From an uncultured Candidatus Saccharibacteria bacterium (GTDB lineage: Bacteria > Patescibacteriota > Minisyncoccia > Phycocordibacterales > UBA9973): 39,022 nt of DNA. Position 1 is the stretch's first letter. The number at the start of each line of letters is the position of its first letter. Where the stretch lies: the NCBI GenBank assembly GCA_964408725.1, contig CAYPAN010000001.1:1-39022 (forward strand), in the 5' to 3' direction. A program made the translations under genes and the position numbers. A model generated the notes under the pieces. That model did not search any database. It worked only from the letters and a program-made list of their open reading frames with translations, and had not been told where the DNA came from. Shown here piece after piece: positions 20,271 to 38,422 of this stretch.

Positions 20271-20284
20271 AGTATGATGATACC

Positions 20285-21653: not shown

Positions 21654-21656
21654 TTG

Positions 21657-22310
21657 CTAAAAAAGCTTAGATTGCACATCTTCAAATTTTTCCGGCGGGA
21701 TGTATTCCTCATGCTTTGTCTCTTCAAACTCTCTGGCACTGACCTTCAGGAGGGCCGCTGGCAATTTTTTAAAAGTATCTTCAAACATTTTCATCGCTTC
21801 ATTCCCCCGCAATGCGGCAGCAGGATGGAGCATCGGCAGAACAAAAATACTTGCCCGTCCTCCGGCGGGTTTCTCCACTTTAAAAAGTTTGCCCTGGTCG
21901 CGGGTAATCTTTGCCATCGGCAAAAAGTAATTCATAGAGAACCGGCCGAGCGGCACAATTATTTTCGGATTGATAATATCTACCTGCCGCGCCAGGTAAG
22001 GTTTGTATTTCTCGATTTCTTCTTCGTTCGGGTCGCGGTTCTCCGGCGGACGGCGTTTTACAATATTGGTTATGTAAACATCTCCCTCCTGCCAACCCAA
22101 GTCACGAATGTTTTTACGGAGCAGTTGCCCCGCACGCCCGACAAAGGGGCGTTTTTGCATATCTTCGTTGAAACCGGGAGCTTCTCCGATAAAAAGCACC
22201 TCGCAGTCGGTATTACCTTCGCCGAAAACCAGATTGGATTTTTGCAAGGGCAGAGTCTTATCTTTCTCCATTTTCTGCTTCAATTTACCAAGCTCAGATA
22301 TTTTATCCAT
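21657..22310 (-). CDS. Uracil-DNA glycosylase, family 4
   Basis: LVFGEGNTDCEVLFIGEAPGFNED...PFVGRAGQLL (motif A) and the HPAAALR-type motif B. Confidence 0.85.
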   Translation of the reverse strand: MDKISELGKLKQKMEKDKTLPLQKSNLVFGEGNTDCEVLFIGEAPGFNEDMQKRPFVGRAGQLLRKNIRDLGWQEGDVYITNIVKRRPPENRDPNEEEIEKYKPYLARQVDIINPKIIVPLGRFSMNYFLPMAKITRDQGKLFKVEKPAGGRASIFVLPMLHPAAALRGNEAMKMFEDTFKKLPAALLKVSAREFEETKHEEYIPPEKFEDVQSKLF

Positions 22311-22333
22311 CTATAAATTATATCTCTTATTTC

Positions 22334-23548
22334 TTACTTAAGGAAATTCTTGCCGCGCATTTTTCTATGGTAAGCAATGGCAAACCTGTGCGCCTCGCTA
22401 TTTGCAAGTAATATTTCCTTCTTATGTTTTCGGGTAAGTTTTTCATCACCCATAATTGCCTTTGGTTTATGACGTTCGTCTTTCACAACCGAAACAATCG
22501 GAATTGAAAAACCGGCTTTATTTAAGATATATTTGGCAGTGTTTATTTGAGCCATACCGCCATCTACAACAATCAAGTTAGGATAAGGCCATTCTCTATG
22601 CGCCAGACGTCTTTCCAACATTTCTTTTAAGGCACCCGTGTCGTTTGAAACACTCTGCGTCTTTATTTTGAATTTCCTATATTCATTCTTCTCTACCTCC
22701 CCGTTTTCTATAACGACCATAACGCCAACCATATTTCTGCCTGCCATATGCGCGATGTCATACGCCTCAACACGGATACCTCGGCCGAGGGAAGGGCGCA
22801 GGGACGAAAAAATGAAAGGGTTTCCGGTTTCATTTTTTATTAACGCCACATCATTAATATGTTGCAGGGCAAAAAGCTGTCTTTTTATTTCGCCGGCTTT
22901 TTCAAACTCACCCAGTTTAGAATACGCATTCATTTCTTTCTTAAGATTTTTGAAAATCTGCTTTTTTTTGCCTTTAAAAAACAAAATTATATTTTTGATA
23001 TTCTGTAAATACAGTTTTTTATCGTCCAAATCCGGAATCAGGTTTATTTGCCTGTAAAATTCCATATAATTCTTACTTTTTTCGTCTAAAAATGGAAAAA
23101 TCTTTCTTATTATCTTTATAGCCTCGCGAAGTTGGGAACCGTTCGGATAAGGTCCGAATACTTTATAAAATAGAGACGGTTTTAAATTCTTGCCTCGCAC
23201 TATAATCACTTTTGGCAAGTCTTCTCTAGTTATGCAAATATAATTAAAACTTTTATCGGATTTTTCTTTAGTATTGTATTTCGGCTGGTATTTTTTTATA
23301 AGAGAAGCTTCTAATATAAGCGCTTCAAGCACGTTATCTGTCTCTCGCCAGTCTATTTGGGTTGCTTTAAATATTAAATCCACTAAAAGCGGACCCCTGG
23401 TTTCAATTAAATCTTTTCCAAAATAACTTTTTATCCTATCCCTAAGTGATGTCGCTTTGCCAATATATAAAATCTCTTTTCCTTTGAGAAAAAAATACAC
23501 ACCGGGCTTTTGGGGTATTTTAAGTTTTTTGAAATATTTTATATTCAT
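22334..23548 (-). CDS. uvrC: Excinuclease ABC subunit C, short form lacking the C-terminal (HhH)2 domain
   Basis: GIY-YIG (PGVYFFLKGKEILYIGKATSLRDR), a UVR-like helix (EFEKAGEIKRQLFALQHI) and an RNase-H-like endonuclease domain (IEAYDIAH..., VVDGG, EAHRFAIAYHRK). The protein ends at 404 aa, against about 600 aa for E. coli UvrC. Confidence 0.85.
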   Translation of the reverse strand: MNIKYFKKLKIPQKPGVYFFLKGKEILYIGKATSLRDRIKSYFGKDLIETRGPLLVDLIFKATQIDWRETDNVLEALILEASLIKKYQPKYNTKEKSDKSFNYICITREDLPKVIIVRGKNLKPSLFYKVFGPYPNGSQLREAIKIIRKIFPFLDEKSKNYMEFYRQINLIPDLDDKKLYLQNIKNIILFFKGKKKQIFKNLKKEMNAYSKLGEFEKAGEIKRQLFALQHINDVALIKNETGNPFIFSSLRPSLGRGIRVEAYDIAHMAGRNMVGVMVVIENGEVEKNEYRKFKIKTQSVSNDTGALKEMLERRLAHREWPYPNLIVVDGGMAQINTAKYILNKAGFSIPIVSVVKDERHKPKAIMGDEKLTRKHKKEILLANSEAHRFAIAYHRKMRGKNFLK

Positions 23549-23599
23549 GGTTCTATTTTATTACCATGACCCTGAGATTATCGAATGGGTCATAAAAAA

Positions 23600-26194
23600 T
23601 CATTTACGCAGAGCTTTTTTGAGATACTTCCCGGTATAACTCTTCGGACTATTCGCTATTTCTTCAGGCGTGCCTTTGGCTACCAGATTCCCCCCACTTA
23701 CTCCGCCTTCGGGACCAATATCTATAACATAGTCCGAGCTTTTGATAATATCAAGGTTATGTTCAATCAAAACCACAGTATTCCCTTTTGACACAAGCTT
23801 GTTCAGTACTTCAAGAAGCTTCACCACATCGTCATAATGCAGTCCCACTGTCGGTTCATCAAGAAGATAAATAGTCTTTTCCAAATATGGGCGAAAAAGT
23901 TCGCTGGAAATTTTCACCCGCTGGGCTTCTCCGCCGGAAAGTGTGGTTGCCGACTGGCCAAGCTCCAGATAACCCAGACCCACTCCCGAGAGCGTATACA
24001 AGCGGTCATAGATTGCGGGAATATCTTTAAAAAAGATAAGTCCTTCTTCCACGGTCATATGAAGCACTTCATATATATTTTTTTTCTTATATTTTACCGT
24101 CAGTGTTTCTTTGTCAAAACGTTTTCCGTTGCAGACATCGCAAGTAACGTACACGGTGGGCAAAAAGTGCATCTCCACGGCAATTTGACCATTGCCCTCG
24201 CAGGCTTCACAGCGTCCGCCCTTCACATTAAAAGAAAAGCGGTTGGCTTTCCAGCCGCGAAGACGCGCTTCTTCGGTAGTAGCAAATAAATCTCGGATAT
24301 GGGTAAAAGCGCCCGCATAAGTGGCCAAATTTGAGCGCGGAGTCCTGCCTATCGGGGACTGGTCAATCAAAATAGCGCGCGACAAATATTCAGTGCCGGT
24401 AAATGAAGAACAGTTAAAAATTTTCACTGTGCGATATTTGCGTTCATAACGGGCCTGAAGATTTTTATACAAAATTTCATACATAAAAGAACTCTTGCCG
24501 GAACCGGATACCCCGGTAATGGATGTCATTATGCCCAAAGGAACTTCAACATTTAAATTTTTGATGTTGAAAATTTTCCCGCCTGTTATACGCAACGCTC
24601 CTTTTCCGCCCCGGCGTTTTTCCGGCACCGGAATTTTTATTTCTTCGCGAAGATAAGAAAGGGTTCTGGAATTGTTTGTATTCTTTTTTGCGGTTAATAA
24701 TTCTTCCAGCCATCCGGAAACTATAACTTCGCCTCCGTGCACACCAGCCTTCGGGCCTATATCCACTATATAATCGGACGCGTAAATCGTATCCTCATCG
24801 TGTTCAACAATTAAAATGGTGTTGCCTAAATCACGTAGGTTTTCCAATGTTTTAATCAAACGGTCATTATCGCGTTGATGAAGCCCTATAGTCGGCTCAT
24901 CCAAGACATATAAGGCGCCGACTAATCTAGAGCCCAGCTGGGACGCCAGGCGAATGCGTTGGGCTTCTCCGCCGGAGAGAGTATTGGCTTTACGAGAAAG
25001 CTGTAAATAATCGAGTCCAACATCCAACATAAACTGCAAACGCGCTTCTATTTCACGAACAACGGGCAGAGATATTTCCTTTTCCTGGTCCGATAGCTTT
25101 AAAGTTTTGAAAAATTCCGCTGCCTCTATTATTGTAAACGATGATAATTCAAGAATGTTCTTGCGTTTATGCCCGGCACTGATAAAAACATTTAATGCTT
25201 CCGGGCGCAACCGCGCTCCGTGACAAGCATCACAGGGTTCCTCACCCATAAAATATTTTGTGCCCAAGCCATGGCAAACTTCACAGGCACCATACGGAGA
25301 ATTGAAGGAAAAAAGACGCGGTTCAATTTCCGGAAAAGAAAAACCGTCATTCTTGCAGGCAAATTTCGCGGACATTGTGAACTCTTCTTCGGAACCGAAA
25401 GAAACGGCCACTAAACCGTCGGATTCAATGAGCGCCCGCTCCAAGGCTTCCGCTAATCTGGTGCGACTTTCATCTTTGTGGTCATAAAATTCGTGTACTG
25501 CAAAATGGTCAACCAAAATATCAATATTATGCGTTTTGTTCTTGGAAAGAATTATCTGTTCACGCAATTTTTTCATTACTCCATCCAAGCGAATCTCGGA
25601 AAATCCTTTACCAAGCAAATCATAAAGCAATTGATAATATTCCCCTTTACGGCCCCGGACAATGGGAGAGAAAATATTCATTTCGGTTTCATCCCATTCT
25701 ATACCCATTACAGATTTCTTATTTTTCTTGTTCTTTTCAAGCGCTTTTATTTTTTCCAGGACAAAATTCAAAATTTCCTCGTTTGAAAGTTTTTTAATTT
25801 CTTCTCCACATAGAGGGCAGTGAGGATGCCCGATGCGTGCATACATTACGCGCAGGTAATCATATATTTCGGTAATGGTCGCCACCGTAGAACGCGGATT
25901 ATTGGAACGGGATTTTTGGTCAATGGAAATAGCCGGCGAAAGCCCGGTTATTTCGTCCACATCAGGCTTGGGCATTTGATTCAAAAATTGCCGCGCGTAA
26001 GAAGACAAGGATTCCACATACCTCCTCTGCCCTTCGGCAAAAATTGTGTCAAAAGCAAGAGAGGACTTGCCGGAACCCGAAACACCGGTAATGGCTATCA
26101 TACTGTTGCGTGGCATTTCCACATTTATATTCTTCAAATTATGGGTTCTAGCCCCTTTTATCGTTATTTTATCTATATTTTTATCCAATTTCAT
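23600..26194 (-). CDS. uvrA: Excinuclease ABC subunit A
   Basis: Start at ATG 26194 ([23 protein letters not shown]). Two ABC modules (GVSGSGKSS twice, LSGGEAQR twice) and Cys-rich zinc modules ([15 protein letters not shown]...[14 protein letters not shown]...CDVCNG). Confidence 0.95.
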
Positions 26195-26215
26195 AAAAAT
26201 TAAATAATACCAGAA

Positions 26216-26246
26216 CCACACCCGCCGTCGTTCCTAGGGGGTGTGT
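26216..26246 (-). terminator. Possible uvrB terminator hairpin
   Basis: On the minus strand, CACACCC-(about 15 nt)-GGGTGTG is followed by a T-rich tract. The large loop makes this weak. Confidence 0.35.
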
Positions 26247-26304
26247 ATCTATATTAAGATAAGGAGATTATAACACAAAAAGCCAATTTAACAAAAAAGT
26301 TACA

Positions 26305-28617
26305 TCAAATTTTGATTTTTTCTTTTAAAACAACTATCTCGTCACGCAAGATTGCCGCCGTTTCGAAATCCAGCTCTTTTACCGCTTTATTCATCTCCTT
26401 TTCTTTTATTTTTATTATTTTTTCGTAAACTGTTGTATTTCTTTCTTCATCCGAAAGTAAACTGTTTTTTATAGAATCACTTTCGTTTTTCCCTTTATTA
26501 CTTTTATCTCTGGCAAACGCTTTCTTGAACAATTCAACATCAAGTGCCAATTCCGCATTGACCGTTTTCCCGTGTTCGCTTTCCATTTCCTCGGTTATGT
26601 CCTTAATCTTTTTCATAATCGTTTTCGGCGTGATATTGTGTTTTTTATTGTAAGCAATTTGAATATTACGTCGACGGGTGGTCTCTCCTATCGCCCTCTC
26701 CAGTGAACCCGTCATAACGTCCGCGTAAAGAATGACTTTGCCGTATACATTGCGGGCCGCGCGGCCTATGGTCTGGATTAACGAGGTTTCCGAACGCAAA
26801 AATCCTTCTTTGTCGGCGTCCAGTATGCCGATTAATGCCACTTCCGGCAAATCAAGCCCTTCACGCAGAAGATTTACCCCCACTAAAACATCAAAATCGC
26901 CTTTTCTGAATTGCGTCAGAATTTTTATTCTTTCAATCGTCTTTATATCGCTATGCAAGTATTCCGCTTTTATTTTTTTGTCTTTCAAATAAGTGGAAAG
27001 GTCCTCCGCCATTTTTTTGGTGAGTGTCGTGGCAAGAACACGAAAACCCATCTTGATCGTTTTTTCTATTTCCTTAATAAAATCCTGAATCTGACCCGGA
27101 TAAGGCCCAGAGGTATACTCGGAGGAGTATTCGCTGCGGCCAGAACTTTCTTGCCCTTCCAAGATAGAGTGCGAACGACGGAGAGAATTATCCTGAGCAA
27201 GACTTTCCGAAACCGGCCGAACAGAAATCTCCGGGTCAACAAGCCCGGTTGGACGGATAATCTGTTCCACCATTTGTTCGCTTTGAGCGCGTTCCTGGTC
27301 GGAAGGCGTAGCGCTAGTGTATATGACAGGCCCGATTCTTTCACTAAATTCTTCATATTTTAAAGGTCTGTTGTCTTTGGCCGAAGGCAAGCGAAAGCCA
27401 TATTCCACAAGGGTATTTTTGCGGGAAGCATCTCCCGCGTACATACCCTGGAGCTGTGGCAGGGTGACGTGAGATTCGTCTATGACAGTCAAAAAATCAG
27501 GAATATACTCGGAGGAGTATTCGCTACTGCCAGAACTTTCTTGCCCTTCCAAGATAGAGTGCGAGCGACGGAGAGTATGTTCCTGATTTTTTATATGCGG
27601 AAAATAAGAAAGTAATGTTTCCGGCGGTTCGCCTTCTTTTTTGCCGGATAAATGTCTTGAATAATTTTCAATACCGTTGCAATAACCGACTTCACGAATC
27701 ATAGCTAAATCATAATTTGTCCTTCTTTTAATGCGTTCTGCTTCCAATAATTTTCCTTCTTTCTCAAATTTTTTCAATTGGCTCGTTAATTCTTTTTTTA
27801 TCTCCACCAGCGCTTTCTTTTTCTTCACGTCCTCAGTTATAAAATGTTTCACCGGAAAAATAAACAATGGTTCTTCCTCGCCTGCTCCCGACTTGGGAGG
27901 GCGGGCAGGTTTGATAATCTGTGAAGAAATCGGGTCAATTTTTTTAATTTTTGAAATTAATTCATTTTGTATTTCCACCTGATACATTATTTTTTCAGAT
28001 ATGGGCATAATTTCCACCCGAGAACCGATTGAACGGAAAGTTCCCGGATTTAAGTTGGCATTTGTGCGCTCAAAATGAATTTCAATCAATTTTTTCATTA
28101 AAGCCATTCGGCTTATTTTCATACCGATTTTCAATTTCAAATTAACCTTTTCATATTCCACAGGAGACCCCAAGCCGTAAATGCAAGAAACTGATGCCAC
28201 TATTATCACATCACGTCTGGTGAGCAATGCTTCCGTCGTGGCATGACGCAGACGGTCTATTTCTTTATTGATTTGTGCGTCTTTTTCAATGTATGTGTCT
28301 GACGCCGGCATATAAGCCTCCGGCTGATAATAGTCGTAATATGAAACAAAATAATGCACAGCCGCGTCCGGGAAAAATTGCTTAAATTCCTGTGCAAGCT
28401 GGGCGGCCAGAGTTTTATTGTGTGCTATGACAAGCGTCGGCTTATTATATGCGGCTATCACATTAGCCATTGTAAAAGTCTTACCTGTGCCCGTGGCCCC
28501 TATCAATGTTTGTTTTTTCATTCCCTTTTCAAGCCCATTTAGAAGCTCCGAAATAGCCTTGGGTTGATCTCCCGCTGGCTGAAATGGTTTATGTAGTTTA
28601 AAAATATTTTTTGACAA
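26305..28617 (-). CDS. uvrB: Excinuclease ABC subunit B, carrying two in-frame repeat-element insertions
   Basis: Walker A GATGTGKTF, FVSYYDYYQPEAY, motif II VIDESHVT, GFRLPSAKDNRPL, LLREGLDLPEV, QTIGRAARN and a C-terminal UVR domain. It is 770 aa against about 670 aa for typical UvrB. The two inserts of about 33-36 aa account for most of the excess. Confidence 0.95.
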   Translation of the reverse strand: MSKNIFKLHKPFQPAGDQPKAISELLNGLEKGMKKQTLIGATGTGKTFTMANVIAAYNKPTLVIAHNKTLAAQLAQEFKQFFPDAAVHYFVSYYDYYQPEAYMPASDTYIEKDAQINKEIDRLRHATTEALLTRRDVIIVASVSCIYGLGSPVEYEKVNLKLKIGMKISRMALMKKLIEIHFERTNANLNPGTFRSIGSRVEIMPISEKIMYQVEIQNELISKIKKIDPISSQIIKPARPPKSGAGEEEPLFIFPVKHFITEDVKKKKALVEIKKELTSQLKKFEKEGKLLEAERIKRRTNYDLAMIREVGYCNGIENYSRHLSGKKEGEPPETLLSYFPHIKNQEHTLRRSHSILEGQESSGSSEYSSEYIPDFLTVIDESHVTLPQLQGMYAGDASRKNTLVEYGFRLPSAKDNRPLKYEEFSERIGPVIYTSATPSDQERAQSEQMVEQIIRPTGLVDPEISVRPVSESLAQDNSLRRSHSILEGQESSGRSEYSSEYTSGPYPGQIQDFIKEIEKTIKMGFRVLATTLTKKMAEDLSTYLKDKKIKAEYLHSDIKTIERIKILTQFRKGDFDVLVGVNLLREGLDLPEVALIGILDADKEGFLRSETSLIQTIGRAARNVYGKVILYADVMTGSLERAIGETTRRRNIQIAYNKKHNITPKTIMKKIKDITEEMESEHGKTVNAELALDVELFKKAFARDKSNKGKNESDSIKNSLLSDEERNTTVYEKIIKIKEKEMNKAVKELDFETAAILRDEIVVLKEKIKI
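27105..27198 (-). repeat. Hairpin repeat element, copy A (in frame in uvrB, between VRPVSE and GQIQDFIKEI)
   Basis: The 68-nt core at 27118-27185 matches copy B at 65/68 positions and the polA copy at 63/68. It encodes SLRRSHSILEGQESSGRSEYSSE. The flanking arms are only weakly complementary. Confidence 0.85.
27491..27592 (-). repeat. Hairpin repeat element, copy B (in frame in uvrB, 8 codons upstream of the DESH box)
   Basis: The 68-nt core is at 27508-27575. The 20-nt arms at 27491-27510 and 27573-27592 are reverse complements at 19/20 positions. Total length is 102 nt, or 34 codons. Confidence 0.9.
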
Positions 28618-28645
28618 TATTTTATATTAACACTTTTTAGAATTT

Positions 28646-28774
28646 TTATTGAATATCGTAGTAGTTTTCAGGAGAATAAACCTCATATCCTTTCATAATA
28701 ATTATATAAGCAAAGACAGAACTTATTATTGTAAATATAAGCATAAATATGAATGTTTTATTAGTTGCGGACAT
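28646..28774 (-). CDS. Possible 42-aa hydrophobic miniprotein
   Basis: Hand-translated as MSATNKTFIFMLIFTIISSVFAYIIIMKGYEVYSPENYYDIQ. It has one TM-like span, lies just upstream of uvrB, and is below the ORF-track length cutoff. Confidence 0.25.
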   Translation of the reverse strand: MSATNKTFIFMLIFTIISSVFAYIIIMKGYEVYSPENYYDIQ

Positions 28775-28867
28775 AGTTTTAATTATAACATTTATTTATT
28801 TCAAAAAGTAAAAATCTCTTGATTTTTGAGCACATTTCCTATATATTTGAGTTGCTTGTCAAATTTC

Positions 28868-28915
28868 CATAGTTAATGTTTCCGCCCGTAGCTCAGTTGT
28901 AGCGGATTCAACTGA
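28868..28915 (+). pseudogene. Decayed partial duplicate of the tRNA-Lys 5' region
   Basis: CATAGTTAAT (28868-28877) and CCGCCCGTAGCTCAGTTG (28882-28899) are identical to 28942-28951 and 28955-28972 of the intact gene 73-74 nt downstream. The remainder no longer folds as a tRNA. Confidence 0.6.
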
Positions 28916-28954
28916 CTATTTACAAAAAGTTATTAAAACCGCATAGTTAATTAA

Positions 28955-29027
28955 CCGCCCGTAGCTCAGTTGGTAGAGCAGATCCCTTTTAAGGATAAGG
29001 TCGTCGGTCCGATCCCGACCGGGCGGA
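28955..29027 (+). tRNA. tRNA-Lys (anticodon UUU)
   Basis: Hand-folded. Acceptor CCGCCCG/CGGGCGG with discriminator A. D arm GCTC-AGTTGGTA-GAGC. Anticodon arm GATCC-CTTTTAA-GGATA (27:43 G/A mismatch). T arm GTCGG-TCCGATC-CCGAC. Oddities are the C1:G72 pair and a C at T-loop position 55. Confidence 0.8.
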
Positions 29028-29032
29028 CAAAT

Positions 29033-29680
29033 TTAAAAAGCATCCAGTAAAAATTGCTCAAATACAGACTCGGCGTCTTTGCCATCTTTGCGGGCTTCCG
29101 GCAGAAGGTAAGAAAGCTTGCCGGCAAAATTTTCAAGCTCGGAAGAAGTATATTTTCGGAAATCTTTTTTCAGTATCATATCTTTGGTTTTCCAAAACAA
29201 AACACCGGCGAGTTCTTCCAGGGCCACGTCTTTTTCCAAGGCTTGCCTAAAATGAACCCATAAATTAAGCTTATCCCGCTCCCCAAATGCATTGGCCAGC
29301 ATAAAACTGTTAAATCTTTCCTTTTTCTCTTTAGGTAATTCAAGTATACTGATTTTCGCTTTTACTTTTTCAAAAGCATCTAAAATTTCTTTATTTAACT
29401 TTCCTTCTAAAAAAATAAAATCATTACCGGATTCACTTATTATATTCAACTTATTTAAAATAAAATTAAGCGTTTCTTCCTTTTCAAAAATATTTGTAAA
29501 AATTACCGCGCACTTTTTAAAAAACAGTCCAGCGCCGGAGTAAAAACTCTCCGTTTCCATTTCTTTAAAGTCATTTTTGCCGATAAAAAAAGTTTCCGTA
29601 CCGGCTGGCATAGACTTTATTAATTTTTCATAACTCTCGTGTTTATTTTTTGCATCATCTCCACAAAAAAGATAAATCAT
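29033..29680 (-). CDS. DNA polymerase III delta subunit-like protein (short HolA)
   Basis: IYLFCGDD start and a helical C-terminal half (FMLANAFGERDKLNLWVHFRQALEKDVALEELAGVLFWKTKDMI) resemble HolA. It is only 215 aa. Confidence 0.5.
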   Translation of the reverse strand: MIYLFCGDDAKNKHESYEKLIKSMPAGTETFFIGKNDFKEMETESFYSGAGLFFKKCAVIFTNIFEKEETLNFILNKLNIISESGNDFIFLEGKLNKEILDAFEKVKAKISILELPKEKKERFNSFMLANAFGERDKLNLWVHFRQALEKDVALEELAGVLFWKTKDMILKKDFRKYTSSELENFAGKLSYLLPEARKDGKDAESVFEQFLLDAF

Positions 29681-29681
29681 A

Positions 29682-30167
29682 TTAGAGTTTCACTGATTTT
29701 TTATATTCCAAATACGGAGCGCCGTATTTTTCCGCAAGAATTCTTTCTTCTTTTTTGAGAAAGAAAAATTTGGCCACAAAAATTGAAATTATTGAAAAAA
29801 TAACCACAAAGAAAGAATCGGCTACGATGCCAAAACCCAACACTAAAAGAAAAAGTCCAAAATGCGTCGGGCTTCTGGTAAACCTATAAGGCCCGCGGTA
29901 AAATGTCTCCTTGCTTAGGCTCTCCTTCTCCAAATTACGGGAGGATTTTTGTGCCCAAAATACTAAAAGCGTACCGAGAACCAAAAAAACAATGCCAATG
30001 GGCATCAAATCCAGCTTCCCAAAAATTTTAAGGGGAAAAACAAAATCCAAGAGAAGCCCGAGCAAAAAGGAGATAAAAAAACAAAGATACGAATGCGCTA
30101 AAATTTTATGCACTTTATTTTTGTTTTTACCTCCAAATTGTTCTGCTGTAGTTCCTATTTGCATCAT
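29682..30167 (-). CDS. Isoprenylcysteine carboxyl / phospholipid methyltransferase-family membrane protein
   Basis: Four or five TM spans and the YRFTRSPTHFG...L motif of the ICMT/PEMT family, with a C-terminal EERILAEKYGAPYLEYKK. Confidence 0.7.
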   Translation of the reverse strand: MMQIGTTAEQFGGKNKNKVHKILAHSYLCFFISFLLGLLLDFVFPLKIFGKLDLMPIGIVFLVLGTLLVFWAQKSSRNLEKESLSKETFYRGPYRFTRSPTHFGLFLLVLGFGIVADSFFVVIFSIISIFVAKFFFLKKEERILAEKYGAPYLEYKKSVKL

Positions 30168-30191
30168 TTTATAATAGCATATAATGTACCA

Positions 30192-32645
30192 TTATTTAAC
30201 CTCTCCAAAATTATTTCCGGAACCGGAATGTACTAAGAGCGGAATACTAGTTTCATAATGTAAATATGAGCGTTTTAGCACTGTTTGCATAGCATTTTTT
30301 ATCACTTTTCCCGCCTCTTCAAGTACTTTATCTTCCACTTCATAAACTAATTCATCGTGAATTTGAAGCACCAGATGAGCTTTTTCTAAAATATTCGCTT
30401 TTTTCAAGTCTTCTTCCGCGTATCTTATGGCCAGTTTTATAATATCGGCCGTGGCTGTGCCCTGGACTGGCGCGTTTATGGCCGTGCGTTCAGCCATATT
30501 TTTCAAAAATGGAATTCGTGAATTTATATTGGGAAAATATCGGCGCCTGCCGAATAATGTTTCCGTATATGAATGTTTCATAGCAAAAACTTTTACCTCT
30601 TCCAGATAATCCCGCACGCCACTAAATTGATTGAAATAATTGTCGTAAAATTTTTGCGCTTCAGGGCGGGTACCTCCTAAACTTTTACGCAAAGCTGAAA
30701 CCCCCATACCGTAAATAATGCCAAAATTTATCACTTTCGCTTTGCGCCGCATTTCAGCGTCCACCTTATCTATAGGCACGTTAAAAACAAAAGAAGCCAC
30801 TCCGGCGTGAATATCTTTACCTTCACGAAATATTTGCGTCATTTTTTTATCTCCAGAAAGCATCGCCACAACCCGAAGTTCAATCTGGCTGTAGTCAAAA
30901 GCCAAAAGTTTACAGCCTTTTCCGGCTATAAAACCATTCCTTATTTTTTTGCCCAGTTCTGTTTTTATCGGCAAATTCTGCAAGTTTGGGTCTTGGGAAG
31001 AAAATCTGCCGGTCGTTGTGCCATTCTGCAAAAATTTAGCGTGCAGACGACCGTCTTGCGCCACCATTTTGGGAATTACGTCAATATAAGTGGAAAGCAG
31101 TTTTTGCAACTCTCTATAAGACAATATTTCTTTTATGATTGGATTATCTTCTTCCAGTTCTTCCAGCACTGAAACTTTGGTCGAAAAGGAGCCGCTGGCG
31201 CTTTTTTTCTTACTTGATTTCATTCCCATTTTACCGAAAATAACTTCTCCCAATTGTTTAGGTGAATTAATATTAAATTCCGTTCCTGCCATTTTGTAAA
31301 TTTTCCCAGTTAGCTTGTCCAATTCTTTATGGTATTCCTCTGATAAATTTTCAAAATATTTTTTATCTATCAATATGCCATAATCCTGCATTTCTTTTAC
31401 TATGGGCATTATGGGTCTTTCTATTTCTTCATAAACTTTTTCCAGTCCTTTTTCTTTCAATTGCTTAAAAACATACTCTCGCGCTGTTTTAAAATCATTC
31501 GTCTTTCCAAAATGCAAAATGTCTTCCAAAGAGGGATTGGCAATGTCCGAATTTAAGAGCCATAGGGCAATGGAGGTTTCCTGAAGCTCCTTTTCGTCCA
31601 CAGTATGTACCCCTTGATGATTGTTCTCGGAGGAGTATTCGCTGCTACCAGAAATATCTTGCCCTTCCAAGATAGAGTGCGAGCGACGGAGAGAATTATC
31701 ATCAAGGGGTACTTTTTCTTTTTGAAACTTCCCTGCAAAAAAACTTTTCAATCGCGCAAATAAACTTCTAAATTCAAACAAGGAAAAAATATTCTCAATT
31801 TTTTTCAAATCGGCATTCTGCCAAAAAGTATTTTTCGGCAATGTAAAATTTATCGGCGCATCAGTCCTGATTTTGGCCAGAGTTTTGGAAAACAAAGCTT
31901 CTTCCTCGTTGTTTTTTATAAGTTCCAATATTCTTGGAGAAATATCATTTTTAATGAAAATACTTTCGTCTTTTTTTAATTTTTTATAAATTTCTTCTAT
32001 AGTTCCGAAATTAACAATAAGATTGGTGGCTGTTTTTTCACCAATACCCTTTATACCAATAATATTATCCGACGGGTCGCCCCGCAGACCTTTGTAATCC
32101 GGTAAAAGTTTCGGCTTAAATCCAAACCTACCAATCACCTTTTCCTCGTTGTACAAGATAGTGTCATTAATTCCTTTTTTTAATGTATAGACTTGCACTT
32201 TTTCTCCGTCTACCAATTGCATTGTGTCCATATCACCCGAGGCAATAATTATATTTATTTTTTTGTCTTTTTTTAATTCTTCCACTATAGTACCCAGCAC
32301 ATCATCCGCCTCAAAACCCGGAGCATCATAAATAGGAATATTAAACGCCTCAAAAATCTGCCTGGAATTTTTCAGTTGCAGAATAAGAGCATCATCGGTT
32401 TTTGCTCTTCCAGCTTTGTATCCTTCATACGCTTCGTGTCTGAAAGTTTTTTGTGGTAAATCATAACAGGCTACAATATAGTCCGGTTTTAAATCGGTAA
32501 TTATTTTCATCAGCATACTGGTGAGTCCATACAAGGCTCCTGTGGGCTCGCCCTTGGACGATAAAAACTCCGGTAAGGCGTGATAAGCACGATGTATTAT
32601 CGCGTGAGCATCCAGCAACACTAATGTCTTTTTATCTTTCTCCAT
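30192..32645 (-). CDS. polA: DNA polymerase I, carrying one in-frame repeat-element insertion
   Basis: Start at ATG 32645 (MEKDKKTLVLLDAHAIIHRAYHALP, 5'-nuclease domain). Pol A motifs: LLAFDYSQIELRV (A), RRKAKVINFGIIYGM (B), LQIHDELVYEV (C). The upstream 46 codons of the ORF track lack homology and overlap the pilB start. Confidence 0.95.
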   Translation of the reverse strand: MEKDKKTLVLLDAHAIIHRAYHALPEFLSSKGEPTGALYGLTSMLMKIITDLKPDYIVACYDLPQKTFRHEAYEGYKAGRAKTDDALILQLKNSRQIFEAFNIPIYDAPGFEADDVLGTIVEELKKDKKINIIIASGDMDTMQLVDGEKVQVYTLKKGINDTILYNEEKVIGRFGFKPKLLPDYKGLRGDPSDNIIGIKGIGEKTATNLIVNFGTIEEIYKKLKKDESIFIKNDISPRILELIKNNEEEALFSKTLAKIRTDAPINFTLPKNTFWQNADLKKIENIFSLFEFRSLFARLKSFFAGKFQKEKVPLDDNSLRRSHSILEGQDISGSSEYSSENNHQGVHTVDEKELQETSIALWLLNSDIANPSLEDILHFGKTNDFKTAREYVFKQLKEKGLEKVYEEIERPIMPIVKEMQDYGILIDKKYFENLSEEYHKELDKLTGKIYKMAGTEFNINSPKQLGEVIFGKMGMKSSKKKSASGSFSTKVSVLEELEEDNPIIKEILSYRELQKLLSTYIDVIPKMVAQDGRLHAKFLQNGTTTGRFSSQDPNLQNLPIKTELGKKIRNGFIAGKGCKLLAFDYSQIELRVVAMLSGDKKMTQIFREGKDIHAGVASFVFNVPIDKVDAEMRRKAKVINFGIIYGMGVSALRKSLGGTRPEAQKFYDNYFNQFSGVRDYLEEVKVFAMKHSYTETLFGRRRYFPNINSRIPFLKNMAERTAINAPVQGTATADIIKLAIRYAEEDLKKANILEKAHLVLQIHDELVYEVEDKVLEEAGKVIKNAMQTVLKRSYLHYETSIPLLVHSGSGNNFGEVK
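31607..31712 (-). repeat. Hairpin repeat element, polA copy (in frame in the linker after the 5'-nuclease domain)
   Basis: The 68-nt core is at 31626-31693. The 22-nt arms at 31607-31628 and 31691-31712 pair with 20 Watson-Crick pairs and 1 G/T pair out of 22. It encodes VPLDDNSLRRSHSILEGQDISGSSEYSSENNHQGV. Confidence 0.9.
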
Positions 32646-32682
32646 TGTGTAAATTATAGCATTATTGCTATAATTTATAATT

Positions 32683-34380
32683 ATGGCGGACTTTGACGAA
32701 GAAAAACAAAATAAGCAATTGGATGATTTACACAGAGAGGAAGAAGAACAGCTGGTAGCAATGCTGGCGGAATCAAAATACAAGCTTCCTTATATCGACC
32801 TGTCTCGTTTGGGCATAGATAATGAAGCACTTCGAGCAATATCCGAAAAGGATGCCCGTGAACTGAAGGTGGCCCCTTTTAAACTTTTTGGGAAAAATAT
32901 TTTTATAGCGGTACGTTCCCCTTCAGATGACCTTTTGGCAAAACTTAAAGACCAAATAGAGAGAAAGGATTTAATCCCTACTTTTTATATGGTGTCGTTG
33001 GCATCCTTAGAAAAAGTTTGGGGCAGATATAAAGAGTTATCGTTGGCAGAGAGTTCTAAGGTTGGGGGCGTGGACATTTCTGCGGAAGTTTTAAGAGAGG
33101 TGGCAAAAGATATAAAAACAATAAAAGACATAGAAAAATTAATTGCGGATATAAATGAAGGAAATTCGATACACAAAGTTTCACATTTATTGGAAATAAT
33201 ATTAGCCGGAGCGATAGCCATAAAAGCTTCCGATATACATATAGAACCCCAGCAGGAAAAAAGCAGGTTGAGAATTAGATTGGATGGTGTCCTTCACGAT
33301 GTTATATTTTTTGAAAATAATGTTTATCATCTTCTTAACTCGCGAATAAAGCTTCTCTCTGGAATGAAATTAACTTCAACGATAGCGCAGGACGGACGTT
33401 TTAGTATTGTGGAAGAAGCGGAAGAAATAAGCATTCGTTCTTCTATGATTCCCGGGGCATACGGCGAATCAATCGTTATGCGTATTTTGGACCCGAAATC
33501 AATCCAGGTAAAACTTGAAGATTTGGGCATAGAACCTTTTCTATTTTCTATAATAGAAGAGGAAATCGCGAAGCCAAACGGCCTTATATTAGTCACTGGT
33601 CCTACTGGTTCCGGAAAAACGACCACTCTTTACGCATTTTTGAGAAAAATTTATTCTCCGGAAATAAAAATAATAACCATTGAAGACCCGATAGAATATC
33701 ATTTGACAGGCATAACACAGACTCAAACAAATGACGAAAAAGGATACACATTTTTGGAAGGCTTGCGTTCCGGCTTGCGTCAGGACCCAGACGTGGTAAT
33801 GATAGGTGAAATACGAGACGCGGAAACAGCCAAAATCGCCATAGAGGCGGCTCTAACGGGACATATGGTATTTTCTACTTTACACACCAACAATGCGGCC
33901 GGAGTCATTCCGCGTTTGATTGACCTTGATGCCAATCCAAAAATTATGGTTTCGGCTTTATCTCTTTCCATTGCCCAACGTCTAGTGCGCAAGCTTTGTC
34001 CATTTTGTAAAATCGAAAAAGCTCCCGATGAGAAAGAAGCGAAAACTATGAAAATAATAATGGACGGGATAAAAGAAGAAGGTAAAAATCTTTCAAATTA
34101 TAATATAAATCCCGATGCGCCTATTAAATTCTTTTCTCCTGTCGGCTGTGATAAATGCAATGTGACGGGATACAAAGGACGAATAGGTATTTTTGAAGCA
34201 ATTAAAACCGACGAAGCTATAGAAAAAATAATTCCGGAAAATCCAAGCGAGCGTGAAATAAAAAAAATTGCCCGGGCTCAAGGAATCCTTTCTATGCGTC
34301 AAGATGGCATAGTAAAAATATTAAACGGTATTACTTCATTTGAAGAAGTGCAAAGCGTAGTTGACCTGTTGGAGGAATAA
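32683..34380 (+). CDS. pilB: Type IV pilus / type II secretion assembly ATPase (GspE/PilB family)
   Basis: N-terminal GspE_N-like domain, Walker A GPTGSGKTTT, Asp/His boxes (IMIGEIRD, VFSTLHTN) and a tetra-Cys motif (CPFCK...CDKCNVTGYKGR). Confidence 0.9.
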   Translation: MADFDEEKQNKQLDDLHREEEEQLVAMLAESKYKLPYIDLSRLGIDNEALRAISEKDARELKVAPFKLFGKNIFIAVRSPSDDLLAKLKDQIERKDLIPTFYMVSLASLEKVWGRYKELSLAESSKVGGVDISAEVLREVAKDIKTIKDIEKLIADINEGNSIHKVSHLLEIILAGAIAIKASDIHIEPQQEKSRLRIRLDGVLHDVIFFENNVYHLLNSRIKLLSGMKLTSTIAQDGRFSIVEEAEEISIRSSMIPGAYGESIVMRILDPKSIQVKLEDLGIEPFLFSIIEEEIAKPNGLILVTGPTGSGKTTTLYAFLRKIYSPEIKIITIEDPIEYHLTGITQTQTNDEKGYTFLEGLRSGLRQDPDVVMIGEIRDAETAKIAIEAALTGHMVFSTLHTNNAAGVIPRLIDLDANPKIMVSALSLSIAQRLVRKLCPFCKIEKAPDEKEAKTMKIIMDGIKEEGKNLSNYNINPDAPIKFFSPVGCDKCNVTGYKGRIGIFEAIKTDEAIEKIIPENPSEREIKKIARAQGILSMRQDGIVKILNGITSFEEVQSVVDLLEE

Positions 34381-34384
34381 AAAA

Positions 34385-34526
34385 ACACTAATCTCTAAAC
34401 AATCCTTTCAAAACTAAGTTCCGAAAGTAACAAATCATTAAAGGATAGCACCAGCAACTCGTGAGAGCGCCAAAACGTCCTATGCAAACTTGTAGAACCG
34501 GTGGCTGATTGCTTAGAGATTAGTGT
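34385..34526 (+). ncRNA. Unassigned structured element (candidate ncRNA, complex terminator or MITE) closed by a 20-bp stem
   Basis: ACACTAATCTCTAAACAATC (34385-34404) pairs with GATTGCTTAGAGATTAGTGT (34507-34526) at 19/20 positions. The interior contains a GNRA-capped hairpin CTC-GTGA-GAG and further short helices. CTTCTTTTT follows. Confidence 0.4.
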
Positions 34527-34674
34527 CTTCTTTTTAAAAAACAAAAGAGACTTTTAAATCTCTATAAATTAATTATACTATATGGAATATCAGGCAAATG
34601 CTATAATGTGGATAGCACTGTTGATACTCTGTTGATAAATGTACTACTTCTAGAGTATAGCATAATATAAAAAA

Positions 34675-35718
34675 ATGTCAAGCGAAAAAGACAAAGAAAA
34701 AAAGAAAATACCCCTGGAAAAAGTGTCCGGTGTTGGAGATTCTTTCTTAGACCAGACCTTAAGACCCACCCGCTGGGACGAATATATCGGCCAAAAACAC
34801 ATAAAAGACAACGTTAAAATCCTGCTACGGGCCGCCGAAGAGAGAGGGCATATTCCGGAGCATATACTTTTTTACGGCCCTCCGGGCTTGGGAAAAACCA
34901 CCTTGGCGCACCTGATAGCCCACGAGACAGGCAAACAAATAAAGATTACGTCCGGGCCGGCTATTGAAAAAGTGGGCGATTTGGCTTCAATTCTCACAAA
35001 TTTATCTTCAGGCGACATACTTTTCATAGACGAAATTCACAGGCTCAATAAAACAGTGGAAGAGATACTCTACCCTGCTATGGAGTCCGGCGTCTTGGAT
35101 ATAATTATCGGTAAAGGACCTTCCGCCCGCACTATCCAGCTGGACCTACCGCCTTTCACTTTGATTGCCGCCACTACCCGTGTCGCCCTTGTCTCTTCCC
35201 CCTTACGTTCACGCTTCTCCGGCGGAGTCTTCAGATTGGAATTTTATTCAAATGAAGAAATCGGGGAAATTGTAAAAAGGTCCAGTAAATTGCTGAATAC
35301 AAAATTGGATGAAGGGGCCTTAAAAGAAATCGCCAAGAGAAGCCGGTTTACTCCCCGCACCGCAAATTATTTTTTGAAGAGAGTGCGTGACTTCGCCCAA
35401 GTGCACAAAAAAAGTTTAGACCAAAAGACGGTCAAGGAGGCGCTCAATATGCTCGCCATTGATGATATCGGCTTAAATTCTTCCGACAGAAAGTTCTTAG
35501 AGATATTGATAGATAAATTCGGCGGCGGACCGGTTGGGTTAAAAACAATCGGCGCGGCTATGTCCGAAGAAGAAGCCACGGTGGAAGAAGTGATTGAACC
35601 TTATTTAATTCAGCTTGGACTCTTAGAACGCACCTCCCGTGGCCGCGTGGCCACTCCTAAAGCATATAAACATTTAGGTTTTGATCTAAAAGAAGAGAAA
35701 CAAAATAAACTTTTGTAA
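34675..35718 (+). CDS. ruvB: Holliday junction branch migration ATPase RuvB
   Basis: LRPTRWDEYIGQ, Walker A GPPGLGKTT, Walker B LFIDEIHRL, sensor TTRVALVSSPLRSRF and a C-terminal winged helix (EPYLIQLGLLERTSRGR). Confidence 0.95.
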   Translation: MSSEKDKEKKKIPLEKVSGVGDSFLDQTLRPTRWDEYIGQKHIKDNVKILLRAAEERGHIPEHILFYGPPGLGKTTLAHLIAHETGKQIKITSGPAIEKVGDLASILTNLSSGDILFIDEIHRLNKTVEEILYPAMESGVLDIIIGKGPSARTIQLDLPPFTLIAATTRVALVSSPLRSRFSGGVFRLEFYSNEEIGEIVKRSSKLLNTKLDEGALKEIAKRSRFTPRTANYFLKRVRDFAQVHKKSLDQKTVKEALNMLAIDDIGLNSSDRKFLEILIDKFGGGPVGLKTIGAAMSEEEATVEEVIEPYLIQLGLLERTSRGRVATPKAYKHLGFDLKEEKQNKLL

Positions 35719-35724
35719 ATAATT

Positions 35725-36264
35725 ATGTCCGGACACAACAAATGGAGCCAAATAAAACATAAAAAAGATATTACTGATGCTAAGAAAAGCAAGATTTTCT
35801 CTAAATTAGTGCGTTATATTGGTGTAGAGGCAAAACTGGCAAAAGGCGATATAAACGCGCCAGGGCTTCGCGCCGCGATTGAAAAAGCAAGGAAAGTAAA
35901 TATGCCCTCGGAAAATATTGAAAGGGCTATAAAGAAAGCTTCAGAGCCGGGAGCTCAAATGGACGTAATCACTTACGAGGCTTATGGCCCGGGCGGAGTC
36001 GGAATCATTATAGAAACCCTTACAGACAGCCGGAACAGGACGGCGCAAGATATAAAACACATACTTTCAAAAAACGGCTTCGCGCTAGGAGGTATCGGGT
36101 CTGTCTCCTGGTCTTTCACCAAAGAAAAAACGCCGGAAGGAATAATCTGGAAACCAAATATGTTTACCCCTGTTTCGGATACCGATTTGGAATTATTAGA
36201 CAAACTCGTAGACGAATTGGAGGAGAATGACGATGTTCAAGATGTTTTTACTAATGCGGAATAA
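35725..36264 (+). CDS. yebC: YebC/PmpR-family protein, short form
   Basis: MSGHNKWSQIKHKKDITDAKKSKIFSKL start and YEAYGPGGVGIIIETLTDSRNRT core. It is 179 aa against about 245 aa in E. coli YebC (recalled). The middle subdomain appears to be missing. Confidence 0.85.
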   Translation: MSGHNKWSQIKHKKDITDAKKSKIFSKLVRYIGVEAKLAKGDINAPGLRAAIEKARKVNMPSENIERAIKKASEPGAQMDVITYEAYGPGGVGIIIETLTDSRNRTAQDIKHILSKNGFALGGIGSVSWSFTKEKTPEGIIWKPNMFTPVSDTDLELLDKLVDELEENDDVQDVFTNAE

Positions 36265-36269
36265 AAATT

Positions 36270-36749
36270 ATGAGAATTTTAGGAATTGACCCCGGATATG
36301 AGCGATTGGGCGTCGCCATACTTGAAAAAAACAAAAATGAGAAAAAGGAGACAGTCTTGTTCTCGGAGTGTTTTAAAACTTCCGCTAAGTTGGAATTTTC
36401 CGAAAGATTATTTTTAATCGGAAAAGAAATAAAAAATATAATAAAAAAATTCAAGCCAGAAGTTTTGGCCATTGAAACCTTGTTTCTGACCACCAACCAA
36501 AAAACAGTGATGCATGTGGCAGAAGTGCGCGGAGTAATTATTTATGAAGCTTCATCCGCCGGACTCAAAATTTTTGAGGCCTCCCCACCCCAAATAAAAA
36601 TAGCCACAACCGGTTATGGAAAAGCGAATAAGGAGCAAGTGATGAAAATGGTAAAAATATTGGTTGAAATAGACAACCTCAAAAAGTCGGACGACGAGCT
36701 GGATGCTATTGCCACTGCCTTAACCGCCTTTGCCCATATAAGGTTCTAG
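36270..36749 (+). CDS. ruvC: Crossover junction endodeoxyribonuclease RuvC
   Basis: MRILGIDPGYERLGVAI (catalytic Asp), AIETLF (Glu) and DELDAIATAL (Asp). Confidence 0.9.
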   Translation: MRILGIDPGYERLGVAILEKNKNEKKETVLFSECFKTSAKLEFSERLFLIGKEIKNIIKKFKPEVLAIETLFLTTNQKTVMHVAEVRGVIIYEASSAGLKIFEASPPQIKIATTGYGKANKEQVMKMVKILVEIDNLKKSDDELDAIATALTAFAHIRF

Positions 36750-36847
36750 GGTTATCCACATATTCTATTGCCAACCGTTTTAGATTTTGATACAAAGTAA
36801 TAAATTAATAATAGGTCGTTTAATAAACCTAAAAAATTTGCGTATAT

Positions 36848-36985
36848 ATGAGTTACGATGAAGAAGAAAACAGTATACCTATGGATGCTGATATAGAAAA
36901 TGAAGACGAACCGCTGGAACTGCCGGACGAACCGCTGGAAGACGATTCAGATTATATAGAAGACCCTGATGACAGGTATCACTAG
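36848..36985 (+). CDS. Possible 45-aa hyper-acidic miniprotein
   Basis: Hand-translated as MSYDEEENSIPMDADIENEDEPLELPDEPLEDDSDYIEDPDDRYH, with 21 of 45 residues D or E. A strong terminator follows. It is below the ORF-track cutoff. Confidence 0.35.
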   Translation: MSYDEEENSIPMDADIENEDEPLELPDEPLEDDSDYIEDPDDRYH

Positions 36986-36986
36986 A

Positions 36987-37013
36987 AATAATCCCGCCGT
37001 CGGCGGGATTATT
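36987..37013. terminator. Bidirectional intrinsic terminator
   Basis: AATAATCCCGCC-GTC-GGCGGGATTATT followed by TTTATTTTT. It overlaps the tyrS stop codon on the other strand. Confidence 0.8.
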
Positions 37014-38382: not shown

Positions 38383-38422
38383 AAAAAAGCATTATAACAC
38401 ATTTTCTGTTATAATTAATGGG

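Follow-up and report, generated by a model that had tools for sequence, protein, structure and literature searches.

Low-copy palindromic repeats in frame within uvrB, polA and a small number of other genes of Patescibacteria

The contig CAYPAN010000001.1 (assembly GCA_964408725.1, titled an uncultured Candidatus Saccharibacteria bacterium and belonging to a small-genome bacterium of Paceibacteria type), the whole 39,022 nucleotides of which are referred to here as the window, carries three copies of a hairpin-forming repeat of roughly 100 nt within the reading frames of DNA-repair genes: two in uvrB (copies A and B) and one in polA (copy C). The repeat consists of a conserved core and an outer stem that differs from site to site, and in related genomes the same positions are either empty or, in dozens of species, filled by this family or by other hairpins. 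With confidence somewhat better than even, the family was interpreted as a DNA-level, low-copy palindromic repeat of the kind represented by Rickettsia palindromic elements (RPEs) and intragenic repetitive extragenic palindromes (REPs), which is translated with its host genes and tolerated by them, homogenised within the genome, and slowly lost or replaced.

An earlier note on this DNA had described a shared 68-nt core, and its hand counts (pairwise identities of 65/68, 63/68 and 64/68, with 38 of 68 G+C in copy A) were matched exactly on recounting. G+C amounted to 38/68, 37/68 and 36/68 in the three cores, compared with 39.1% over the whole window. A repeat search of the window returned a single three-copy family, 83 nt in length, whose other two members matched the reference copy at 93% and 89% of positions. 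The best-conserved stretch of the family was a block of 25 nt, TCGCACTCTATCTTGGAAGGGCAAG, which occurred three times when up to three mismatches were allowed (none was expected from 100 dinucleotide-preserving shuffles). A covariance model built from 38 copies, described below, scored copy A at 91.0 bits (E = 3e-21), copy B at 113.9 and copy C at 117.8, and located no further copy in the window. As had been stated beforehand, all three copies have one orientation (minus strand) and one shared frame, giving LRRSHSILEGQ(E/D)(S/I)SG(S/R)SEYSSE, and the core has no stop in four of six frames; within PolA, the peptide of copy C is KVPLDDNSLRRSHSILEGQDISGSSEYSSENNHQG. The window UvrB matched that of B. 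caldotenax (PDB 2fdc) with E = 1.6e-216. The label 'essential DNA-repair genes' given to the hosts was too strong, as nucleotide-excision-repair (NER) genes are not essential in the usual sense.

Two scans at the DNA level, one with an exact 22-mer over one genome per species (10 loci) and one with an 18-mer over Joint Genome Institute (JGI) metagenomes (33 loci, 4 of which were chance matches), produced copies beyond the window: 46 were found in related metagenome-assembled genomes (MAGs) and metagenomes, making 49 with those of the window. A second tally put the genuine additional copies at 45. Every locus lay in a MAG whose title named Candidatus Nomurabacteria, Paceibacterota or Patescibacteria, with a Saccharibacteria label in one case, in keeping with the candidate phyla radiation (CPR)-like lineage suspected previously. 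Thirty-eight unique full-length copies were aligned; a further unique copy that had lost its 5' arm (L014) was left out. The aligned copies were confined to seven sites in five genes, with hosts assigned by Pfam. The polA linker contributed 15 unique copies (after FEFRSLFARLK.F), the HD domain of the CCA-adding enzyme eight (between HDIGKPK.RR and KKKYTFYGHE), uvrB site b six (between SYFP and DFLT.IDESH), uvrB site a five (between RPTGLVDPEI.VRP and GQIQDF), uvrA site 2 two, and uvrA site 1 and the C-terminus of CarA one each. Contigs of 313-599 kb contained only one to three exact 18-mer copies each; on one 313-kb contig, copies in uvrA, polA and cca lay at about 235, 241 and 285 kb.

At the protein level, a 34-column profile of the peptide was compared with 1.84 billion representative proteins; since representatives stand for clusters at 50% identity, this search was not a census. 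It gave only five matches, of which the useful ones were a PolA fragment and a fragment of KsgA/RsmA (RrnaAD), where the peptide is also present. The other three (P0241, P0242 and P0245, ranked highest) were unrelated tandem-repeat proteins with PSHSYMLEGQAVSG repeats and were rejected as chance or low-complexity matches rather than hosts of the element. A concatenated query of the four stop-free frames had no match in an index of 5.8 billion proteins, which reflects a limitation of that index, the window's own UvrB being present in the database. Within the window no Rfam match reached the gathering score, and at E up to 10 only noise was recorded around the copies.

Hairpins of about 100 nt were also observed between genes, in genomes with cca copies (L016:5133-5230, plus strand; L016 near 4029, L024:4797-4895, L022:1280-1384 and L013:7750-7850, all minus strand). 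Their core, TTTTTCACGGYYCGCACTCSAACYTG...GCGTATGCCGAAAAA, with a related core also written ...CACGGYYCGCACTCSAACYTG...GCGTATGCCG..., resembles the coding core; the outer stems of 15-25 bp are private to each, and the covariance model assigned them scores of 17-27 bits. A permissive Rfam search with an intergenic relative returned only generic, miRNA-like hairpin matches.

Each copy of the coding family combined an asymmetric core of about 70 nt, constant in length, with an outer stem of 13-20 bp whose sequence was specific to site and lineage. Read in gene orientation, the core was ATGCTC(T/G)CCGTCG(T/C)TCGCACTCTATCTTGGAAGGGCAAG, followed by 14 variable nt and then AGCGAATACTCCTC(C/T)GAGCAT. 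RNAalifold predicted 26 pairs; 17 of these showed compensatory double changes, and all 17 belonged to the outer helix. At the polA site alone (16 genomes), double changes affected 16 of 17 outer-helix pairs, and 90% of outer-helix cells were paired; over the whole structure at this site 92.8% of cells were paired, against 34-46% when the partner was slid by one to three columns, and the observed values were reached by none of 500 column shuffles. The central hairpin and 5-bp middle helix proposed in the earlier note do exist, as CTTG/CAAG and TCGC/GCGA, but these inner helices showed no covariation and were broken by one-sided changes in divergent copies. The outer stem alone has evolutionary support, and the inner helices are not claimed as conserved structure. 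The idea that long outer arms form part of the conserved element had to be abandoned, the arms being locus-specific and partly composed of host codons.

The mean minimum free energy of the 38 copies was -40.5 kcal/mol. Within the window, the outer arms of copy B (20 nt) were 95% complementary and those of copy C (22 nt) 91%. The predicted hairpin was borne out for copies B and C by folding of the sense strand (z = -3.8 and -7.4), but not for copy A (z = +0.1), which folded no better than shuffled sequence. Mismatches in the outer stem were 29 A.C and 12 G.U on the sense strand, and for 29 of 38 copies the better fold was that of the antisense strand (Wilcoxon p = 0.004). Taken together, these results point to DNA or to the complementary strand, and selection for a hairpin in the sense mRNA was therefore disfavoured.

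At both uvrB sites the 3' arm enters host codons whose conservation extends to the UvrB of Bacillus (G-Q-I for site a, (P)-D-F-L for site b), and therefore the 5' arm must be host sequence copied in inverted orientation. In 8 of 10 genomes, the 5' arm of site b tracked the synonymous third base of an Asp codon (GAT or GAC), T being accompanied by A in 5/5 cases and C by G in 3/5. That the 3' arm is always the host arm was considered as a general rule and not adopted: at uvrA site 1 the host side seems to be the 5' arm, while the polA linker is too variable to tell. In E. coli mutagenesis, quasipalindromes are corrected by intramolecular template switching, which would add an inverted copy of a flank to a hairpin, as seen here, and correct mismatches between arms without selection. 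The host-derived compensating stem would most simply have arisen when synthesis folded back or switched template at the core hairpin, the arms then being corrected against each other. Quasipalindrome correction is a mutational mechanism and not an element family, and it leaves unexplained a core that is asymmetric, uncorrected and conserved.

Conservation was measured both in genomes obtained through UvrB protein homology (L048-L051, independent of the 18-mer) and in the ascertained set. Where the amino acid was the same, the codon was also the same in 72-87% of cases in the core and in 44-49% of cases in host uvrB, and third-position identity was 0.75-0.78 against 0.46; amino-acid identity, on the other hand, was about 70% in the core and 80-85% in host uvrB. 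The 5' block lacked codon periodicity (variability of 0.43, 0.44 and 0.43 bits at positions 1, 2 and 3), and in the ascertained set third codon positions were the least variable. Copies in cca had one additional nucleotide in the variable region, such that the 3' block is read as QRILLRAH and not SEYSSEH while its DNA is conserved, the frame being restored downstream; the L023 copy at the cca site was inverted relative to the gene, in frame, and used the other hydrophilic frame. The low synonymous divergence, the absence of periodicity, the frame switch in cca and the inverted copy are therefore evidence against selection on the peptide. It is the nucleic acid that is conserved and not the peptide; with silent sites more conserved than those of host uvrB, the claim of a family at nucleotide level, as opposed to protein convergence, was upheld.

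Of 49 unique sequence contexts, 44 had an open sense frame; the remaining five were explained by the natural stop that follows the copy in CarA, by the inversion, by the loss of 49 nt in L014, and by two stops situated far from the element. Both frames in use are hydrophilic (grand average of hydropathy of -1.19 and -0.91), whereas the unused open frames are hydrophobic (+0.4). The element is predicted to be transcribed and translated with the host gene. Relative to 2fdc, the window UvrB has inserts between residues 330 and 332 (33 aa, copy B) and at 426-428, where the crystal protein has no residues. An AlphaFold2 model of UvrB, which was of mediocre quality (mean predicted local distance difference test score, pLDDT, of 64) and used only as weak support for disordered inserts, showed residues 347-368 and 473-503 as its least-confident coils, the former below 50. 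The insert is probably a hydrophilic, disordered loop of 28-35 residues, situated where domains meet in UvrB, UvrA, PolA, the CCA-adding enzyme, CarA and KsgA.

Two further irregularities were observed in these host genes. In the polA copy of L014 (L014:1174-1302, minus strand), the 49-nt deletion removes the 5' arm and shifts the frame, and its reading as an in-frame deletion was rejected for that reason; possible explanations are a pseudogene, variation within the population and an assembly error. The window UvrB also contains ten residues, KPARPPKSGA, that are extra to the B. caldotenax protein (residues ~235-245, about 27883-27915 on the minus strand; pLDDT <50) and may be another small insert or scar.

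Occupancy was recorded for 120 UvrB and 120 PolA homologues, 74-100% identical to the window proteins, and 104 PolA linkers could be parsed. UvrB site a held this family in 43 homologues and other long inserts in 29, and was empty or short in 45; the corresponding numbers for site b were at least 50, at least 22 and at least 35. Both UvrB sites were empty in 11 of 120 homologues. The parsed PolA linkers included 45 with this family, 53 with other long inserts and 4 that were empty or short. Empty sites in UvrB and PolA of sister lineages, for which the earlier note had proposed to look, were thus present among the parsed homologues. The note had also held that recurrence of the peptide at these sites in sister lineages, with ordinary synonymous divergence, would indicate an ancient protein segment; sites and peptide did recur in this way, but synonymous divergence was lower than ordinary. 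The window's uvrA serves as an empty-site reference, because it is empty at both insertion points (L008 and L034 are among the genomes with an insert there). Remnants included HIKNPESSEYIPDF, HIKDEDSFEYIPDF and ...GRSIDSSEHVRYPG. In one MAG (GCA_030154765.1, L048:374-2829) polA was called as two open reading frames (ORFs) of 602 and 216 aa, which is a frameshift or an assembly error; its linker is without this family.

At least six other in-frame insert families recurred at uvrB sites a and b and at the polA site, for example SFLGSLSPLASGALPLGPSACETPQKRN, (T/S)F.NGLAGVGDPGNRGPE, LGRSGDDGQRKFSAENFRGES and EFS.VLGSPGPRTPARP.ENSL. Those for which DNA was in hand formed strong hairpins (-36 to -68 kcal/mol, z down to -9.7), and at least one of them shares the design of a core with a locus-specific outer stem. 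Such families were seen at uvrB sites a and b in L004, L005, L006, L008, L009 and L011, in the polA linker at L018:3271 and L031:3420, and among proteins P0004-P0240. Site a of L005 looks like a palimpsest, in which the 3' arm of one family stands beside a newer small hairpin. Outer stems common to different families at polA, as if cores had been swapped, were suggestive only, and no claim is made for them.

Copies at different sites within one genome were 84.7% identical, compared with 79.4% for orthologous copies between genomes (permutation p = 1e-4), and the nearest relative of 11 out of 19 copies was in the same genome. Within-genome copies being most alike, the family has therefore evolved in concert. 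Under the interpretation preferred here, cores would be copied among the sites of a genome through gene conversion or re-insertion, and this copying would expose the core to element-level selection. The hairpin would be kept by arm-to-arm correction in the DNA (through synthesis that folds back or switches template, or through conversion of one arm by the other) or, alternatively, by element-level selection for the hairpin itself; either could account for an arm that repeats the neighbouring host codons in inverted orientation. Only stop-free, hydrophilic versions with a length of 3n would survive, in tolerant loops; copies would decay by internal deletion, and other hairpin families would then take the same hot spots. 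If copying is restricted to intact cores, element-level selection can account for the conservation of silent sites, and a nucleic-acid function at host level fits it equally well.

Several observations weigh against this interpretation. No conserved terminal inverted repeats were found beyond ATGCTC/GAGCAT, and no target-site duplication at the copies, the flanks being inverted and not direct repeats; no transposase was seen among the genes called in the fetched neighbourhoods, no genome-wide search having been made. Copy number is very low and host range narrow, unlike RPEs or the miniature inverted-repeat class of transposable elements (MITEs), and two pattern scans of viral contigs recovered no copies, so no phage vector is evident. 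With few copies and no hallmark of transposition, the mobile-element picture drawn in the earlier note was not sustained. Nor was a recent mobile burst in this genome, since occupancy of these three sites extends to many species and core distance was correlated with host distance (Spearman and Mantel r of 0.62 and 0.52, Mantel p = 0.005 and 0.035), which indicates mainly vertical descent without rampant horizontal replacement. Decay would be the expected fate of a purely selfish element present in so few copies, yet its silent sites are conserved, which fits a function at the level of the host or nucleic acid too. Insert-free PolA linkers were scarce (4 of 104 parsed), and the Leu codon of SILEGQ changes only synonymously (TTG, TTA, CTT or CTG), a hint of constraint on the peptide. 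The 38-copy set was itself picked by exact 18/22-mers, and for this reason the key tests were repeated on 8-9 copies obtained through protein homology. Finally, some components of the interpretation are ones that we infer, namely translation, an origin of the arms by template switching, gene conversion or another mechanism of copying, and the absence of a host function.

The conservation of silent sites under mostly vertical descent would also be produced if the hairpin, of whichever family, were a cis-acting element in the mRNA or DNA of NER and repair genes that benefits the host, such as a site for RNase III or decay, a pause in transcription or translation, or a binding site for a damage-responsive factor, and that serves these genes as a common means of control. 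Such an element would suit the restriction of hosts to uvrA, uvrB and polA plus cca, ksgA and carA, the compensatory outer stem, the presence of some hairpin insert in the polA linker of about 96% of parsed homologues, and the same gene bias among unrelated palindromes in unrelated phyla (PMC3733652). It was nonetheless considered rather unlikely, since 30-40% of close homologues are empty or short at a given uvrB site (11 being empty at both, as noted above), some copies are remnants or frameshifted, that of L023 is inverted, relatives lie between genes, and replacement by unrelated families occurs; the excess of A.C over G.U on the sense strand, the lack of covariation in the inner helices and of any Rfam match, and the persistence of the core of copy A after most of its outer stem was lost are equally awkward for it. 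A different history, in which insertions are independent, fairly recent and site-specific in the manner of homing, each creating an inverted duplication of its local target, would explain why arms match the current synonymous variants of the host, why cores look younger than host genes, why copies within a genome are most alike and why several families use exactly the same sites. This was thought unlikely, because the arms at a given site are homologous across species and drift gradually (for instance TTCTGGCGAC, TTCCGGATGA and TTCCTGATAG at polA), the arm codons HIKNQEH...IPDF are missing from empty alleles, core distance tracks host distance, and no candidate enzyme was seen.

It seems more doubtful still that LRRSHSILEGQ...SEYSSE is a peptide module, that is, a selected disordered linker or an interaction or phosphorylation motif of repair proteins. 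While 47 of 48 copies use the same frame, the peptide is hydrophilic with an abundance of Ser and Tyr, the SILEGQ Leu varies only synonymously, and the third codon position is somewhat more variable in the 3' block, amino-acid identity is nevertheless below silent-site identity, and the 5' block is without codon periodicity; cca copies switch frame for their 3' half, the peptide encoded by the inverted copy is unrelated, unrelated families replace the peptide at the same sites, and many orthologues lack it. Palindromic inserts that are bypassed or excised are known from phage T4 gene 60 and from yeast mitochondria, and the long stem brings the two flanks together; both would fit a segment that is absent from the mature protein, either removed from the mRNA (intron-like, with an endonuclease and ligase) or bypassed by the ribosome. 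This is very improbable, given that an intein, intron or bypassed segment would have an unconstrained frame and stops, and that intact copies are all stop-free with a length that is a multiple of three, the +1 nt in cca is compensated, and only hydrophilic frames are used, none of which would be necessary if the segment were removed. An artefact of assembly or sequencing, such as chimeric joins or adapter-like sequence, has next to no probability and was refuted by the occurrence of the same copies in independent NCBI, ENA, JGI and Logan assemblies from many projects; locus-specific arms and intact host reading frames are also at odds with it.

Among known systems, RPEs were the right analogy, as the earlier note had suggested, although further precedent exists in the REPs and RPEs within repair genes of Proteobacteria and Opitutus, where uvrA/B/C, polA, uvrD, dnaE2 and ksgA are affected (PMC3733652). 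RPEs are palindromic families found in frame in unrelated genes, with one frame giving a conserved peptide that is apparently compatible with the host fold (PMC10969869). The window family shares with them its in-frame insertion into unrelated genes and its patchy occupancy among species, being a hairpin-forming repeat at non-homologous sites that adds an in-frame peptide where other orthologues are insert-free. This kinship is one of kind and not of homology; no resemblance was seen to the RPE-4/RPE-6 (CGTC-4/-1) peptides VIPAKAGI, SFPRKRES, DSRFRGND, VIPWLDHGI and DTVVKPRYD, which the comparison covers. RPEs belong to Alphaproteobacteria and have 44 copies in R. conorii (as reviewed in PMC10969869), whereas the present family belongs to CPR/Patescibacteria and has one to four copies per genome; its hosts, unlike those of RPEs, are almost only NER genes, its arms are locus-specific and partly host-derived, and its sites are reused by several families. 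In R. conorii, uvrB is interrupted at two sites, and uvrC, dnaE and ksgA (dimethyladenosine transferase) have one insert each (PMC3733652).

Di Nocera et al. (2013) described GTAG- and CGTC-tagged REPs within genes, many of them concerned with repair or synthesis (excinuclease ABC, UvrD, Pol I, RecBCD and DnaE2), and such genes were sometimes the only ones interrupted in a species (PMC3733652); since the bias towards NER genes was already catalogued there, it is not new. The Pol I insert of R. palustris at residues 338-367 (PMC3733652) is probably, judged by position, in the linker equivalent to the site of copy C. No dedicated transposase is known for REPs of the CGTC type (PMC3733652). REPs are 20-40 bp long, with a stem of 8-9 bp, a loop of 4-5 nt and a tag at the end, and are mostly intergenic and high-copy; the present elements are beyond that size, at about 100 nt with a 70-nt core containing large asymmetric internal loops, and are mostly intragenic and low-copy. 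The REP superfamily taken broadly has stems of 8-13 bp and a short tail. Of 38 copies, 32 contain the tetranucleotide CGTC, which lies within the element (in the internal loop, on the 5' side of the TTCGC helix) and not at its end, while GTAG is found in the variable region of many copies, although not of those in cca. By its size, the internal position of CGTC, its unrelated peptides, its low copy number and its private arms, the element appears to stand outside the GTAG- and CGTC-REP families (PMC3733652).

Bacterial MITEs (Correia, ERIC, BOX, QMITE and others) are likewise small, non-autonomous and hairpin-prone repeats, some of which are translated in frame. Their conserved terminal inverted repeats, target-site duplications and cognate insertion sequences had no counterpart in the window family, in which arms are wholly different between sites and only ATGCTC/GAGCAT beside the core is shared, and covarying. 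The GC clusters, double-hairpin elements and 'byp' elements of fungal mitochondria are also palindromes richer in GC than their AT-rich genomes, with in-frame copies and multi-family hot spots; they differ in being organellar, in that some are bypassed during translation, and in having no NER-gene bias. A full-text search of the literature found no description of such elements in CPR/Patescibacteria.

Table 1. Positions of the repeat copies, their conserved parts and the associated genes within the window
Feature	Position	Strand	Description
Copy A	27100-27203	-	uvrB site a, codons ~469-503, between RPTGLVDPEISVRPV and GQIQDF; core intact, outer stem degraded
Copy B	27490-27593	-	uvrB site b, codons 340-372, between SYFP and DFLTVIDESH; arms 27491-27510 and 27573-27592
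Copy C	31608-31711	-	polA linker, joining the 5'-nuclease domain to the remainder of the protein; arms 31607-31628 and 31691-31712
68-nt cores	27118-27185, 27508-27575, 31626-31693	-	copies A, B and C
Three-copy family from repeat search	27114-27196, 27504-27586, 31622-31704		83 nt
Invariant 25-nt block TCGCACTCTATCTTGGAAGGGCAAG	27150-27174, 27540-27564, 31658-31682	-	three exact matches
uvrB	26305-28617	-	770 aa; Pfam ResIII, UvrB_inter, Helicase_C, UvrB, UVR; hosts copies A and B
polA	30192-32645	-	817 aa from ATG; Pfam 5_3_exonuc_N, 5_3_exonuc, DNA_pol_A; hosts copy C; mechanical ORF extends to 32783, beyond the ATG start
uvrA	23600-26221	-	empty at both uvrA sites that hold the repeat in other genomes

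The repair genes of the window form an island at ~19400-38400, which was also observed in L044 (ruvC-yebC-ruvB-...-polA-...-uvrB-uvrA-uvrC-udg-...-fpg-...-ruvA). For the UvrC of 404 aa, the precomputed Pfam list of the strain gives UvrC_RNaseH and a faint UVR only, with no match to GIY-YIG. An intergenic element of 160 nt at 34376-34535, located 3' of the ORF at 32683-34380, has arms of 29 nt that are 86% complementary and 102 nt apart; it had no Rfam match and belonged to a different family according to the covariance model. A perfect 25-bp palindrome with a 1-nt spacer (1848-1898) directly follows the ORF at 360-1847 and looks like a terminator. GC skew was tried as a marker of replication direction and was uninformative, as it follows gene orientation.

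The repeat family is not categorically new but is a real and well-delimited feature. Three aspects were not seen described elsewhere: the host-derived compensating stem, the reuse of hot spots in UvrB and PolA by multiple families across the clade, and the conservation of silent sites together with vertical descent. In-frame, protein-coding palindromes are hereby extended from Rickettsia and other Proteobacteria to the reduced genomes of the CPR, for which there was no earlier report in the literature searched. Across the clade, at least seven hairpin families occupy three hot spots in UvrB and PolA, making this a systematic phenomenon and an independent replicate of the unexplained bias of palindromes towards NER genes; hundreds of natural alleles, whether occupied, empty or replaced, make that bias testable by comparative genomics. 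The combination of a conserved core with a host-derived compensating stem offers a natural experiment on the upkeep of long hairpins in coding DNA, by template switching or by selection. In practical terms, the inserts inflate or fragment alignments of UvrA, UvrB and PolA as markers, and could mislead annotation and structure prediction of CPR proteins. A bolder idea, to which we give little credence at present, is that hairpins at fixed positions of uvrA, uvrB and polA are a control layer of excision repair that is independent of family, or else a selfish device that throttles a repair system threatening to it. If true, this would explain why unrelated palindromes have converged on the same genes in the CPR, Rickettsia, Opitutus and other Proteobacteria, and equally why the outer stem is compensated even against host codons and silent sites are conserved under vertical descent.

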